35,583 nt of DNA from IMG/VR virus record IMGVR_UViG_2061766007_002310; one strand, given 5' to 3'. The notes beneath the pieces were generated by a model. The model saw nothing but the letters and a program-made list of their open reading frames with translations. It had not been told where the DNA came from and did no database searches. This stretch comes from an uncultured virus (IMG/VR IMGVR_UViG_2061766007_002310). Taxonomy: Duplodnaviria; Heunggongvirae; Uroviricota; Caudoviricetes. The translations under genes and the position numbers were made by a program. Positions 24,003 through 34,667 of the stretch are shown here, piece by piece; the stretch's first letter is position 1; every line of letters begins with the position of its first letter.

Positions 24003-25070
24003 TTATTCACCTTTAGTTTTTACAATAATACCATTCTGCTTTATAAACGACCCTCGATTAGTTATTTTATCCACCAGTACAATCTTCACATTATTTTGAC
24101 GCATACACTCATATTTTGCTTGCGCTAATGCATCATAGTTTCTATTATATGGATTAATCATATGAGTATTCGGATCAGATAAATTAATATCGCTTGCATT
24201 GTTCTGACCAAAGAAATGGACACCTTTTAATTCTACATAGTCATCACCGACCTTAAAATCTGGATAATAATAGTGTCGTATACTATTATATTCGTATGTA
24301 AAATGTATATGAGGATGATACTCAAATGACTCACCACTATCACGAAGTTTCATATAAAATTGTATCTCTGGGAGCGAATCAAACCAAATATCATCATATT
24401 TATACTTTTTCTTAGCTTTATCAAGTATTGATTGTACATGTTGAGGTATGGTCGTTCCATAACGATCAAATAACGTCGATTTATATTTTTCAGCAATATC
24501 TTCGACGGCATAACCAATTCCACCATATTTTTCAATTAATGAATCAAAAAACTGTTGCTTTAATATTGGTGATTGCATATTATGGGACACATTATACTTG
24601 TCCATCATAGTATCTTGTTGTTTCTTACGTAATTCTGCACTTTCGAAGCCGACACCACCATATCGTTGTACGGTTGTCGTCCTAATTTTTTCTTTTACGG
24701 ATTCTAACTTACCAAAATGATCTACCCCATATTTTTGTATACACGTATTTTTTAATGATTCCTTCCATTCTTTTGTTTGAGAATTAAACGCAACACCATA
24801 TCGTTCTATGTTAGTTTGTTTCATTTTCTCAATAAATTGAGGATCATCATATCGATGCCGCATACTACATGATTTACACATCACTGGAAATGATTTCATT
24901 GACCTTAGCATCAATGTTTTAATTTCTTTACATTCACAGCATACAAACGAAAGATGCTTGTATCCGTTAGCCTTCTTAGGTCTAGCGGATTTCCAAGCAT
25001 CAAAATCCTCTTGCGAGGCAATATCAATAACACTTGACGAATTTGACGAAGTATTCTCGATTGGCATCAT
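24003..25070 (-). CDS. Free-standing homing-type endonuclease: Zn ribbon, (E/K)(R/K)YG helical repeats and a C-terminal PD-(D/E)XK nuclease
   Basis: CCECK...CKSC; six repeats (KQTNIERYGV, KNTCIQKYGV, TTVQRYGG, TMMDKYNV, SLIEKYGG, TLFDRYGT); FDSLPE...YYPDFKVGDDYVELKG; strongly AT-rich. Confidence 0.75.
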   Translation of the reverse strand: MMPIENTSSNSSSVIDIASQEDFDAWKSARPKKANGYKHLSFVCCECKEIKTLMLRSMKSFPVMCKSCSMRHRYDDPQFIEKMKQTNIERYGVAFNSQTKEWKESLKNTCIQKYGVDHFGKLESVKEKIRTTTVQRYGGVGFESAELRKKQQDTMMDKYNVSHNMQSPILKQQFFDSLIEKYGGIGYAVEDIAEKYKSTLFDRYGTTIPQHVQSILDKAKKKYKYDDIWFDSLPEIQFYMKLRDSGESFEYHPHIHFTYEYNSIRHYYYPDFKVGDDYVELKGVHFFGQNNASDINLSDPNTHMINPYNRNYDALAQAKYECMRQNNVKIVLVDKITNRGSFIKQNGIIVKTKGE

Positions 25071-29347: not shown

Positions 29348-29740
29348 GTGGTCGTTCCATCCGTACTTTTCCTCACCGACCTCGGTGATTTCGGATTCCT
29401 TGACCTTGATGGACGGTTCAAGCGCAACCTCGGTAGTCGTCACGGTCTTTTCAGTGACCTTGAATATCTGCACGGCAGTCGCCTCGTCCATGCTCCATTC
29501 GCCTCGATCAATGTCTAAGGCAAGCGTATTATGAAGAAACTCCAGCAAGGTTTCCTTAGTCGCATAGCCATGCACCACATCTTCTGGTCTAGTCGACCAG
29601 CCGTAGTCACTAGGAATTCCACGGCGAGCTGTCTTGCCGAACCAGAAATAGAGGTCGCCAGTGCCGCTCTCGTTGCCACTTGCTGGCAACATTGCGTAAT
29701 AGAACTCTTCGACAGTTTCCTTAACCTTCGATGTCGCCAT
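29348..29740 (-). CDS. Hypothetical protein, found after gmk in only one haplotype; 3' end in gap
   Basis: MATSKVKETVEEFYYAML...; AGGAG SD within the gmk 3' end. Confidence 0.6.
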
Positions 29741-30459
29741 CTTTATCTCCTGATAGAAGTTTGCTCACTGCAAATACAAATTCGTTCTCGGCTTCCACAA
29801 GCTCGCCGTCGTTCGTAATAACCGCATCCCAAGGTTTCCTGGCCTCGAAGCAGTTGAACTGTCCGTCCTCGTCGGCACTGCGCTTGTCCCACGTGGTGGT
29901 GTCGCCATTGCGAGCGTTCGCACGTTCACGGCGGATCTCGTCGCTAGTCTTGACATAGATCACCTTCATATTGAAGTCGCCATTGAACTTGCTGCAGAAG
30001 TCGTAGCCGTTAGGGTCGATCGTGTAGAAGATNNNNNNNNNNGTTGCGAGCGTTCGCACGTTCACGGCGGATCTCGTCGCTGGTCTTGACATAGATCACC
30101 TTCATGTTGAAGTCGCCCTTGAACTTGCTGCAGAAGTCGTAGCCGTTAGGGTCGATCGTGTAGAAGATGGTGTCGCCGTCGAGACGGTTGAGCATTTCAA
30201 CGGTAGAGCAGTAACGGAACCCGGTGTCACCGATCTTCGTGTAGGCGAACACGTTTTCCTTGGCCAGCACCTCATCGAACATGTCCTTCGTGAGGAACGT
30301 ATGCTCTACGCCGTCTGTTTCAGTGGGTCGCATCGGCCTATCCGTATAGGAAGGCACCGACACTATTTTGTACACGTCCTTGAACACTTCCTTGGCGTGG
30401 CGGATCAGGGTATCCTTGCCAGAGCCAGAGCGTCCAATAACCAAAATAAGATTCTTCAT
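29721..30459 (-). CDS. gmk: Guanylate kinase-like protein (internal duplication at the 30033 gap; alternative 3' end at 29133-29264)
   Basis: P-loop GRSGSGKDT; SYTDRPMRPTETDGVEHTF is the GMP-binding signature. Confidence 0.88.
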
Positions 30460-30499
30460 GTTAATCCCAATCTCCGGGTTCGTTGTGAGAGGTTCCAAG

Positions 30500-30760
30500 C
30501 CAAGCACGCTTGCTCGGACTCTGCCTCATAAAAGGTATATAAAAGTATAGACGGAATTGTCTATGACTTAAATATAACAATTTATGGTTGCGTTAACAAC
30601 TTGGTTCCATAGACGATTGAAGAAATCGTCCACCATAGCCGCCCTACCGTCTCTGGTAAGTAAGCGATGAGCATCAACCTCGGTAGTTTCACCAGTTCCC
30701 GAAAGGGAAGAGGCCAGAGCTACCAAGTCCGCTGGCGTGAATTTCCGACGGGCAATGTCG
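30500..30760 (-). ncRNA. Putative TnpB omega/reRNA scaffold plus guide (5' boundary approximate)
   Basis: Inferred from the established location of TnpB guide RNAs over the ORF 3' end and right end; terminal hairpin ATAGAC-AATTCC-GTCTAT; the guide would start at 30520 (AGTCCGAGCAAGCGTG). Confidence 0.5.
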
Positions 30761-32106
30761 GTATTAAAACGGTTATTTAGTTCATTGAACAAGGCTTCCG
30801 CGAGGATGTTAATCGCGGCATTGGTATCCCTATCGATAACCAATCCGCATTCCTCGCAGATGAACTCTCGTTCAGACAATGAAAGTTTTTCTTTCACATG
30901 TCCACACCCGGAACATTTCTTTGAAGACGGGAAGAACCGTCCTACTTTCAAGAGCATCGTTCCGTACTTGGCACTCTTGTATTCTAGGAACCTACGGATC
31001 ATGCCAAATCCGCAGTCCGAAATTGCAGACGCCAACGTGTGGTTGGACACCATGCATTTTACGTTTAAGTCCTCTATAGCGACAACCATATTGTGCTTGA
31101 CAATCTCGGTCGTCGCCTTGTGTATCAAGTCCTTACGGTAGTTCTTGATATATGTATTTTTCTTGTTAAAAGTCTTCTTGATGTCCTTGTAATGTACTGA
31201 ATTATACATTCTTCGAGACATCATTTTCTGATATCGCTTAAGTCTTTTCGCATGCTGGAGGAGAAGTTTGTCATTAGCTACTTGCTCTCCAGTAGACAGC
31301 TGCATCAGAGTCTTGATACCCATATCGATACCGACAAGACCATTTTCAGTAGTACCATATTCTACATTGATGTCATCATACGTATACGAAATGGATATAT
31401 ACCAGCAATCATTGCTTCCCTTAGATACTACGAAATTATTGATTTTTCCATGCAAGCATTCTTGATTGACTGGTTCGGCCAATCTAACTGGCCTAGGTAT
31501 CTTCGGCAACTTGATGTAGTATTCATCACTCAACCTTGCTTTGTCGTTCTCTATATAGAACGAACGCTTGGAATTGTATTTCTTTCTCTTAGGAAAGCCA
31601 AACTGTTTAGGATTTTCATAATGACGCTTCTTAGCGAGAACGAAGTTCTTGATAGCGCGAGCCATCGAGCCCTTCGGGCTCTCGTACATCCAGTCAGTCT
31701 TCTGTGCGTTGAATTCCTTGCACAGTTCTTCACACGTTACCGATGCTTGGCCAGCCTTCTTCTTGTCAAACCATGTGTCCCTAGCCCAATTATATGCATA
31801 TCTAGCACAACCGCACGCACGGTTCAATGCGCTTGCTGTCTTGCTATCAACTATCAACATTATCTTCTGAGCGGTCGTTATCATACATACAAGAAATGTC
31901 CCGGCAACGCCTATTGTGGAATTTAACGCTGCCGAGACATCCAAATCGCTAATGTTTATTAGAACAAGAAATTCCACTAACTTGTGCTAATATATGAAGT
32001 TTATATCTGTCTATTAGTAAAATAGAGTTCTTTTGTTTTATGACTTACATTTTTTTTTTACATTTCAATATATTTATATATGTTTTCGTCGATTAGATAC
32101 TATCTA
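30521..32106 (-). mobile_element. Non-autonomous TnpB element (IS607-like ends, no transposase), inserted in a small gene
   Basis: Minus-strand junctions GTGAAG|TAGATAG... and ...GAGGCAG|AGTCCG; removing it restores the reading frame; AT-rich ends share TAAGTCATA (30562-30570 and 32039-32047); no long terminal IR or target duplication beyond a shared AG. Confidence 0.78.
30568..31884 (-). CDS. tnpB: RNA-guided endonuclease TnpB (438 aa from the likely start)
   Basis: GCARYAYNWA N-terminal motif; GFPKRK; RuvC-I VGIDMG, RuvC-II IEDLNV, Zn finger CSGC...CEEC and RuvC-III DRDTNAAINI all intact. Confidence 0.93.
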   Translation of the reverse strand: MITTAQKIMLIVDSKTASALNRACGCARYAYNWARDTWFDKKKAGQASVTCEELCKEFNAQKTDWMYESPKGSMARAIKNFVLAKKRHYENPKQFGFPKRKKYNSKRSFYIENDKARLSDEYYIKLPKIPRPVRLAEPVNQECLHGKINNFVVSKGSNDCWYISISYTYDDINVEYGTTENGLVGIDMGIKTLMQLSTGEQVANDKLLLQHAKRLKRYQKMMSRRMYNSVHYKDIKKTFNKKNTYIKNYRKDLIHKATTEIVKHNMVVAIEDLNVKCMVSNHTLASAISDCGFGMIRRFLEYKSAKYGTMLLKVGRFFPSSKKCSGCGHVKEKLSLSEREFICEECGLVIDRDTNAAINILAEALFNELNNRFNTDIARRKFTPADLVALASSLSGTGETTEVDAHRLLTRDGRAAMVDDFFNRLWNQVVNATINCYI

Positions 32107-32404
32107 CTTCACGGGTTCATAGCCGTCAAGTTCCTCGAAGTACACCGAGTTGAACCAACCGACCAGTTCAGACACCTTCACGAGAGTATACCAGCTGTCG
32201 ACGTGTACGTCCACCACGTTATATTCAGTGCCGACAGAAAGCATGCTAGGGTTNNNNNNNNNNGGATCGTCCAATAACCAAAATAAGATTCTTCATGTTA
32301 ATCCCAATCTCCGGGTTNNNNNNNNNNNNNNNNNNNNNNNNNNNNNNNNNNNNNNNNNNNNNNNNNNNNNNNNNNNNNNNNNNNNNNNNNNNNNNNNNNN
32401 NNNN

Positions 32405-32664
32405 CCTTCAAGTTCCTCGAAGTACACCGAGTTGAACCAGCCGACCAGTTCAGACACCTTCACGAGAGTGTACCAGCTGTCGACATGTACGTCCACCACG
32501 TTATATTCAGTGCCGACAGAAAGCATGCTAGGGTTTCCGCCGACATTGTAAGGCATCTCGTCATTGCGGACGCACTTGACCTTACGAGGCTGTGCATTCC
32601 AAATATCGAATTCGGTGAGTTTCGGATCGCAGATTTTAATTTCTTCGCTCATGTTTTTCCTCAT
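32405..32664 (-). CDS. Small hypothetical protein targeted by the TnpB element (empty-haplotype copy; inserted allele at 32104-32253 with orphaned tail at 30461-30520)
   Basis: ...RKVKCVRNDE...LSVGTEYNVVDVHVDSWYTLV...WFNSVYFEEL in both copies. Confidence 0.7.
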
Positions 32665-33356: not shown

Positions 33357-34667
33357 CTGTGTCCTCGTGATAACCGATGTATGGGTTCTTGTCGGATGCG
33401 CCCTTTTCCGGTCGCATCATAGTCTTGTTTACGATACGCTTGACGTTCTCGATCTTGTCGCCACGGACATAGGAAAGAAGCGCAGCGTTCTGTTCCTCTG
33501 GAAAATGTTCCTTGATGTACAAAGCACGTTCCTTCATGCTGGAACACATCGTCTTGACNNNNNNNNNNNNNNNNNNNNNNNNNNNNNNNNNNNNNNNNNN
33601 NNNNNNNNNNNNNNNNNNNNNNNNNNNNNNNNNNNNNNNNNNNNNNNNNNNNNNNNNNNNNNNNNNNNNNNNNNNNNNNNNNNNNNNNNNNNNNNNNNNN
33701 NNNNNNNNNNNNNNNNNNNNNNNNNNNNNNNNNNNNNNNNNNNNNNNNNNNNNNNNNNNNNNNNNNNNNNNNNNNNNNNNNNNNNNNNNNNNNNNNNNNN
33801 NNNNNNNNNNNNNNNNNNNNNNNNNNNNNNNNNNNNNNNNNNNNNNNNNNNNNNNNNNNNNNNNNNNNNNNNNNNNNNNNNNNNNNNNNNNNNNNNNNNN
33901 NNNNNNNNNNNNNNNNNNNNNNNNNNNNNNNNNNNNNNNNNNNNNNNNNNNNNNNNNNNNNNNNNNNNNNNNNNNNNNNNNNNNNNNNNNNNNNNNNNNN
34001 NNNNNNNNNNNNNNNNNNNNNNNNNNNNNNNNNNNNNNNNNNNNNNNNNNNNNNNNNNNNNNNNNNNNNNNNNNNNNNNNNNNNNNNNNNNNNNNNNNNN
34101 NNNNNNNNNNNNNNNNNNNNNNNNNNNNNNNNNNNNNNNNNNNNNNNNNNNNNNNNNNNNNNNNNNNNNNNNNNNNNNNNNNNNNNNNNNNNNNNNNNNN
34201 NNNNNNNNNNNNNNNNNNNNNNNNNNNNNNNNNNNNNNNNNNNNNNNNNNNNNNNNNNNNNNNNNNNNNNNNNNNNNNNNNNNNNNNNNNNNNNNNNNNN
34301 NNNNNNNNNNNNNNNNNNNNNNNNNNNNNNNNNNNNNNNNNNNNNNNNNNNNNNNNNNNNNNNNNNNNNNNNNNNNNNNNNNNNNNNNNNNNNNNNNNNN
34401 NNNNNNNNNNNNNNNNNNNNNNNNNNNNNNNNNNNNNNNNNNNNNNNNNNNNNNNNNNNNNNNNNNNNNNNNNNNNNNAACTCTGCCAGTAGCCACCTCG
34501 AACACGATGCCACGAGCGTTCAGCGTGACTTCGTCCCAGTCAGCGTGCGCTGCAGTGGCCTCCGTATACTTGAAGCATACCAGACGACCGTCGTCGCTGG
34601 TATCCGACATAAGGCGGCCATCGTTAGCAGCCGCATAGAAAGCGCACATCGGTGGAATTTGAATCAT
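33349..34667 (-). CDS. T4 Rnl1-like RNA ligase (central ~920 nt in gap)
   Basis: N-terminal LVCFKYT...WDEVTLNARGIVFEVATGRV is characteristic of Rnl1-family ligases; the catalytic KxDG motif is not visible because of the gap. Confidence 0.65.

Follow-up and report, generated by a model that had tools for sequence, protein, structure and literature searches.

In T-even phages, the ribosome-binding sites of homing-endonuclease genes are sequestered by leader hairpins, inside which a late promoter starts. In the available portions of the reports on IS200 and ISPpu9, structured leaders that restrain the enzymes of selfish elements are likewise already known. Namely, the available text of PMC4513863 describes repression of IS200 tnpA translation by secondary structure in the 5' untranslated region (UTR) of the mRNA together with the antisense RNA art200 and Hfq, and that of PMC8450116 describes a long structured 5' UTR of the ISPpu9 tnp gene with two small RNAs (sRNAs), Asr9 and Ssr9. 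Here we describe a conserved, covarying RNA-type structure 5' of the tnpB gene of an element in an uncultured virus (IMG/VR record IMGVR_UViG_2061766007_002310; Caudoviricetes), whose whole stretch of 35,583 nucleotides (nt) is referred to as the window. Judged by its genes and ends, the element is a tnpA-less derivative of an IS607-family insertion in a phage genome.

The leader in the window consisted of a short box, two hairpins (HP1 and HP2) and a U-rich spacer ahead of the tnpB start codon (Table 1). A preliminary description of the window had listed an 8-nt box, two complementary 9-mers and a stem of 14 base pairs (bp) with a 17-nt loop on the minus strand, and all these motifs were confirmed at their positions. 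Namely, the 8-nt TATAAACT was located at 32005-31998, two of the 14 HP2 pairs were G-U, and the tnpB ATG at 31884 followed HP2 after 11 nt with no Shine-Dalgarno sequence (SD). Folded as RNA, the 131-nt stretch reached -38.8 kcal/mol in comparison to -23.8 +/- 3.1 kcal/mol for 200 shuffled sequences, all of which it beat (z -4.9); folded as DNA, its z value was -3.3. The leader had originally been regarded as a pseudoknot. A structured RNA with a 9-nt pairing to the HP2 loop was indeed present, but the H-type topology did not stand: the upstream 9-mer was not free but housed in the 12-nt loop of HP1, so that the long-range pairing was a loop-loop helix. Thus, the topology of the leader is an intramolecular kissing-loop of two hairpins, whose partners sit 50 nt apart on one leader.

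The fold was conserved far beyond chance. Covariation was assessed in an alignment of 33 distinct family-1 leaders, which comprised the window and 32 distinct sequences from its relatives. The close relatives from IMG/VR were four loci with 86-88% amino-acid identity to the window TnpB, and a metagenome collection provided 46 loci, 43 of them at 68-91% and three at 35-41%. Standard pairs were found in 97.1% of 1087 pair cells, compared with 39.6-48.3% when the 3' partners were slid by 1-3 columns. Both sides had changed in 20 of the 33 pairs (9/10 in HP1, 2/9 in the kissing helix and 9/14 in HP2), which bore out the expectation that homologues would covary. None of 500 shuffles reached the observed pairing and covariation values, a count that is not readable as a probability because the leader sequences share kinship; the slid controls were the fairer comparison. 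Pairing held in 99.8% of the HP2 cells and 91.8% of the HP1 cells, and the kissing helix was Watson-Crick in 292 of 297 cells. Supplied with no structure, RNAalifold recovered HP1 and HP2, lengthened HP2 to 17 pairs and left the start codon unpaired. A mutual-information scan over all column pairs gave no further helix, and a helix closing over the start codon was rejected as a candidate since it was absent from the consensus fold.

The stems of these leaders contained 136 G-U cells but only five A-C cells, and the fold was therefore selected on the tnpB-sense strand, as a single strand and not as a duplex palindrome. The strand argument that had been drawn from the two G-U pairs in the window was thereby upheld across the relatives. 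Translation from the GTG at 31977, which would give TnpB an N-terminal extension covering the leader, was excluded because 21 of 33 relatives had the upstream frame closed after no more than 6-29 codons. Position 1 of the HTH_OrfB_IS605 profile aligned to residue 1 of the protein starting at ATG 31884. In the relatives, the spacer from HP2 to the ATG was approximately 7-15 nt long and contained no GGAG or GAGG.

Table 1. Features of the leader and of the element that carries it (positions in the window; CDS, coding sequence; aa, amino acids)
Feature	Position	Strand	Details
Invariant box TATAAACTT	31997..32005	-	8-11 nt upstream of HP1; candidate roles: promoter -10-like or RNA 5'-end sequence
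Hairpin HP1	31959..31990	-	arms 31990-31981 / 31968-31959, 10 pairs, 12-nt loop 31980-31969
Kissing 9-mer GTGGAATTT in the HP1 loop	31969..31977	-	partner at 31924-31916
Hairpin HP2	31896..31940	-	arms 31940-31927 / 31909-31896, 14 pairs, 17-nt loop with AAATTCCAC at 31924-31916
U-rich 11-nt spacer with no SD, HP2 to start codon	31885..31895	-	
tnpA-less IS607-family element, 1583 bp	30521..32103	-	left end ATAGTATCTA..., right end ...TTTTATGAGGCAG
tnpB CDS, 438 aa	30568..31884	-	Pfam HTH_OrfB_IS605, OrfB_IS605 and Cas12f1-like_TNB
Predicted 3' guide-RNA (omegaRNA-like) scaffold	30521..30760	-	overlaps the tnpB 3' end and the right end
Apparent empty-site allele: second copy of both flanks side by side, lacking the element	32265..32535	-	direct repeats D2 (97%) and D6 (98%)

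The leader was present in 37 of the 46 close family-1 relatives with the TnpB N-terminus on the locus. Among the nine leaderless relatives, six had short left ends devoid of hairpins (L032, L033, L043, L044, L048 and L050), and the other three (L038, L045 and L046) had tnpA, an open reading frame (ORF) directly upstream of tnpB; the leader was thus found in 37 of the 43 relatives that lacked tnpA. The upstream ORFs of L046 and L038, whose TnpB proteins were 68-70% identical to that of the window, matched Resolvase (1.5e-18 and 7.5e-17, respectively) and HTH_17, and by these domains they are IS607-type serine TnpA. A covariance model was built from the 33-leader alignment and run on four phage contigs totalling approximately 750 kilobases and on the window, where it gave one strong match. 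In the contigs, all seven matches were located before TnpB-type genes; they were the four known leaders and three weaker matches (E 1.8e-9 to 2e-7). The two weaker matches that were examined lay upstream of TnpB-like proteins of 577 and approximately 580 aa that matched only the TNB domain. The same contigs contained a second TnpB-like family (family 2; L060-L084, e.g., L063:768-2498), and one family-2 protein was 25% identical to the window TnpB over the RuvC region. For this family, 19 viral loci were fetched and 19 sources were searched, of which 15 had the leader. The remaining four were a locus cut at its 5' side, two with other coding sequence upstream, and L081 with a Resolvase/MerR TnpA. 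By gene arrangement, the leader occupies the place that tnpA takes in full elements of both families. A strict degenerate leader pattern gave 43 matches in 185,579 species genomes, none of which passed the covariance model at E<=0.01, and no bacterial or archaeal copy was found in this collection. An additional weak model match in the window (24940-25049, E 1.1) sits in the readable coding part of a homing-endonuclease-like ORF (24003-25070; PHROG 3339, 4.9e-15) and was taken as chance.

Of 47 distinct leaders from the two TnpB families, 46 had loops with exact complementarity over 8 nt or more, and in 45 it extended to 9 nt or more; the kissing loops of L084 had one mismatch. The loop sequences came in 11 different versions of 9-10 nt across both families. 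The outer GU and UU(U/C) of the kissing helix were fixed and its centre was variable. In family 2, the diversity of the kissing centre exceeded that of four-fold sites (0.574 versus 0.352), while family 1 had no such excess (0.285 versus 0.418). This suggests faster-than-neutral turnover of the kissing centre in family 2 only, over few columns. The kissing flanks and the box had a diversity of 0.0-0.024, beyond the needs of base pairing. Four contigs with two leaders were seen, and in each of them the two versions differed, an outcome often expected by chance. The window contained three matches to the 9-mer in comparison to 0.27 expected, two being the leader's own. The third copy, AAATTCCAC on the minus strand at 34652-34660, corresponded to codons 3-5 of a minus-strand ORF starting at 34667; it is complementary to the HP1 loop and may be a chance occurrence or a target in trans.

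Several described systems share parts of this architecture. Similar to T-even homing-endonuclease genes, the locus combines a selfish phage nuclease gene, co-oriented with its surroundings, and a stable hairpin ahead of it that is presumed to restrict the nuclease. Unlike in the T-even leaders, the promoter-like box here precedes HP1 as well as HP2, and neither hairpin sequesters a binding site. CopA/CopT (RF00042), which controls plasmid replication, also involves a two-stem-loop RNA of approximately 90-120 nt, in which loops of variable sequence recognise each other by Watson-Crick pairing, whereas here both partners are on one strand and one molecule and there is no antisense gene. With IS200, as far as the available part of its report goes, the leader shares an element-internal, structured left end that would restrain the element's own protein, low expression being selected; it differs in its unpaired AUG, in giving no indication of an antisense partner, and in folding as two kissing hairpins. 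With ISPpu9, on the available part of that report, it shares a structured transposase leader and element-encoded complementary RNA segments. However, the complementary RNAs of ISPpu9 are separate transcripts, while here both loops are on one leader. Finally, the available text of bioRxiv 10.1101/2023.11.20.567912 describes an IStron/IS607 left end with a group I intron, where a structured left-end RNA is likewise combined with a 3' guide RNA. In contrast, a search of the window element at E<=10 returned no group I intron, its left end is 219 nt compared with the 581 bp used for the IStron, and the window copy is intergenic, so that no splicing is needed.

The preliminary description had been unable to assign the leader to a known family, and our searches agreed with it. 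Rfam 15, whose families include group I introns, RAGATH-18, the IS605-orfB motifs, small ribozymes and CopA, gave no relevant match at E<=10 on the window element and no match at the gathering score on six loci searched at E<=1, the best being CopA with 29.8 versus 60 bits. A full-text literature search found no description of such a leader in the main texts covered. The architecture of the leader and its link to TnpB appear to be new.

We consider it slightly favoured, with a probability of about 0.55, that the leader acts in cis by throttling and insulating the translation of TnpB from an SD-less start codon. In this scenario, the tnpB mRNA of the element would begin near the TATAAACTT box, after which HP1 with 10 pairs and HP2 with 14-17 pairs would form, and a 9-bp strictly Watson-Crick kissing helix would join both loops into one compact fold. 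The large stable helix abutting the SD-less AUG would keep TnpB synthesis low. The leader would also insulate tnpB from the transcripts and ribosomes of the co-oriented upstream phage gene, and it may protect the 5' end of the RNA. One and the same transcript would thereby yield little nuclease in proportion to the guide RNA that is cut from it. We infer throttling because the 14-17-bp helix abuts the start site and because no SD stands in front of this tnpB, in contrast to the AAGGA ahead of tnpB in tnpA-linked relatives and the GGAG or GAGG ahead of neighbouring phage genes. Read-through from the upstream gene is to be expected since the element and its neighbours in the window all point the same way. 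Transcription from or near the box and a reduced or insulated translation are the presumed parts of this reading.

A number of points weigh against such a throttle. The start codon lies outside every conserved helix, the leader does not sequester a ribosome-binding site, and the 3' arm of HP2 has no SD at a usable distance. Any repression would come from the helix beside the SD-less start site. Moreover, the transcription start of the leader is a position that we infer, and the box is only a candidate for a promoter -10-like or an RNA 5'-end sequence. A purely structural role in cis does not obviously explain the excess diversity of the family-2 kissing centre either.

That excess is one of the observations in favour of an attenuator, an explanation that is possible though clearly the less probable one. 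HP2 with its UUUCUU tail would be a partial terminator releasing an RNA of approximately 110 nt, tnpB would be expressed by read-through, and pairing in trans would sense the copy number. In both families a G+C-rich stem of 14-17 bp is followed by a conserved U-rich tract (CAUUUCU). The sub-threshold resemblance to CopA (E 0.094) and the differing versions in the two-leader contigs also fit, the latter with the reservation about chance given above. The site has a stem and a U-rich tail (5/8 U); its loop, however, is 13-17 nt where a short one of 3-8 nt is expected, and the terminator scan made no call. A strong terminator would also deprive tnpB, the guide RNA and the phage gene downstream of transcription. 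An ATG was located within 14 nt past the right end in 17 of 27 distinct right flanks, so that for these genes transcription must pass through the element or start inside it, and a strong terminator at HP2 is unlikely. Additionally, family 1 lacks the excess diversity, and the cis partner 50 nt away should out-compete a partner in trans.

It seems doubtful, and is proposed here as a speculation, that the complementary loops are a private recognition sequence working also between molecules, by which the element senses its copy number during phage replication and shuts off nuclease synthesis. Leader RNAs of many replicating copies, or a terminated fragment of approximately 110 nt, would pair through their loops with the leaders of other copies. 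If true, co-resident elements would be pushed to different loop sequences, like the incompatibility groups of antisense-controlled plasmids, and the leader would be an RNA copy-counter made from one sense-strand transcript and common to distinct TnpB-type nucleases. To a similarly low degree we would credit the leader with being an operator for a protein that times the production of the nuclease, either TnpB, in autoregulation, or a protein of the phage or host. A protein ligand could account for one leader type being common to two TnpB-type families with an identity of only 25% and for the invariance of the kissing flanks and the box. On the other hand, no sequence or structural likeness between the leader and the 3' guide scaffold was seen. 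Pairing of the HP1 loop with the loop of the right-end hairpin (AATTCC) was considered and rejected; it fits the window and L001 and shows no covariation in the other relatives.

The preliminary description had proposed that a phage late-type promoter at TATAAACT times TnpB to late infection, as in the homing endonuclease genes of T4, and this now appears quite unlikely. The box is indeed invariant: ATAAAC was present in 33 of 33 family-1 leaders, box diversity was 0.015 in family 1 and 0.0 in family 2, and no conserved -35 element accompanied the box in family 1. The host is also a large phage with few recognisable genes, as five of the 20 large ORFs in the window had PHROGs matches, none of them T4-like. 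The consensus of T4 late promoters is TATAAATA. The box, which reads TATAAACT(T), differs from it and does not qualify as a T4-type late promoter. Its over-representation is weak at most. In the window, TATAAACT occurred twice versus 0.74 expected and TATAAATA twice versus 0.64 expected; in the four related phage contigs, TATAAACTT occurred 28 times in comparison to 14 for the reversed control, and this excess was modest and uneven (12 versus 9, 6 versus 5, 9 versus 0 and 1 versus 0 per contig). Moreover, in the tnpA-bearing L038 the same box was located 7 nt ahead of the tnpA start, and thus the box belongs to the element. Judged by this placement, it is inherited with the element and is not a phage adaptation, contrary to the phage-adapted TnpB that had been suggested. 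Both hairpins lie downstream of the box, which rules out the T4 device, where a late start falls within an inhibitory hairpin. In family 2, a conserved sigma-70-like promoter, TTGACA-17-TATATT (11/12 in L067), ends 2 nt ahead of the leader; with such a promoter, the RNA 5' end would fall at the box. From this promoter placement, the leader is very probably transcribed.

An IS200/IS605-type single-stranded DNA (ssDNA) end hairpin for a Y1 TnpA is largely refuted and very improbable: a subterminal imperfect palindrome does lie on the gene-sense strand in the left end upstream of tnpB, and the strand asymmetry would also fit a top-strand DNA hairpin, but L038, L046 and L081 have a serine-recombinase TnpA (Resolvase and HTH), the hairpins are missing from the relatives that have tnpA or a short left end, the hairpin of the right end (ATAGAC/GTCTAT) bears no relation to HP2 and does not make a pair of ends of that type, and 60 of 330 HP1 cells are G-U, which as G-T would be costly in DNA. 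According to the available text of bioRxiv 10.1101/2023.11.20.567912, IS607-family TnpA works on double-stranded DNA, and an element moving in this way has no need for an IS605-style ssDNA hairpin.

Assignment of the element to the IS607 family was based on the TnpB domains, the serine-recombinase TnpA of full copies, and the defined ends with a 3' scaffold. The window TnpB matched the HTH, RuvC-type OrfB_IS605 and zinc-ribbon TNB domains with E-values of 2e-05, 1.8e-16 and 3.4e-22, respectively. D187, E271 and D353 were invariant in four TnpB homologues and are, in our own reading rather than as tool output, the putative RuvC catalytic residues. In the phage GenBank collection, there was no DNA match and the best TnpB was 36% identical. 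As the preliminary description had expected for TnpB, the predicted guide-RNA scaffold is at the 3' end, separate from the 5' leader; a consensus fold of the 3' 240 nt from 28 sequences had 64 predicted pairs, 27 of them with compensatory changes. The HP2 tail is complementary over 14 nt to the zinc-finger codons of tnpB, which was taken as chance, since there were 12 such pairs in 7 kilobases.

To define the ends, the window and 43 relatives were scanned on the left, which gave 32 distinct left flanks with an identified boundary, and the window and 34 relatives were compared on the right. The left boundary was GGAG/ATAGTATCTAGT, with GGAG in 20 of the 32 flanks, GTAG in three and CGAG in three; the window reads GTAG. 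The right boundary was identical in the window and the 34 relatives, where conservation of the scaffold ended at GAGGCAG and the flanks diverged directly after. From these boundaries, the element seems to land on the SDs of phage genes, its right-end GAGG serving as the replacement. One relative (L012:95-4291) was located inside a phage tRNA array, with its left end abutting a tRNA 3' end; this locus had 21 tRNA matches at E<=2.6e-05 and three weaker matches of tRNA-Sec type.

Between 28674 and 33034, the window contained near-duplicate pieces, 92-98% identical, that were split by runs of 10 N. On the plus strand, the order was right flank (30428-30480), element, left flank (32123-32253), right flank (32265-32317), 87 N and left flank (32405-32535), a layout that looks like the filled and empty alleles of the insertion site side by side. 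The empty-site junction, predicted to be 59 nt, would be hidden in the 87-base N run (32318-32404). A guanylate-kinase-like gene (Pfam 4.3e-09) lay downstream of the element at 30010-30507 and 29721-30092; part of it was doubled across an N run (repeat D3, 98%), and the ORF translations showed XXXX there.

Cas12 descends from TnpB nucleases, which are under development as compact genome editors; apart from the processing of the 3' guide RNA, little is known of how natural elements limit the expression of the nuclease. A 5' RNA module that is both portable and uncatalogued would provide a testable handle on nuclease control. It is a tractable one, as the leader replaces tnpA, is common to families that are 25% identical, and has had its loop pairing rewritten at least 11 times. 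The insertions fall between co-oriented phage genes, often at their SD, and the leader adds to the picture of TnpB elements acting like homing-endonuclease genes in large phages.

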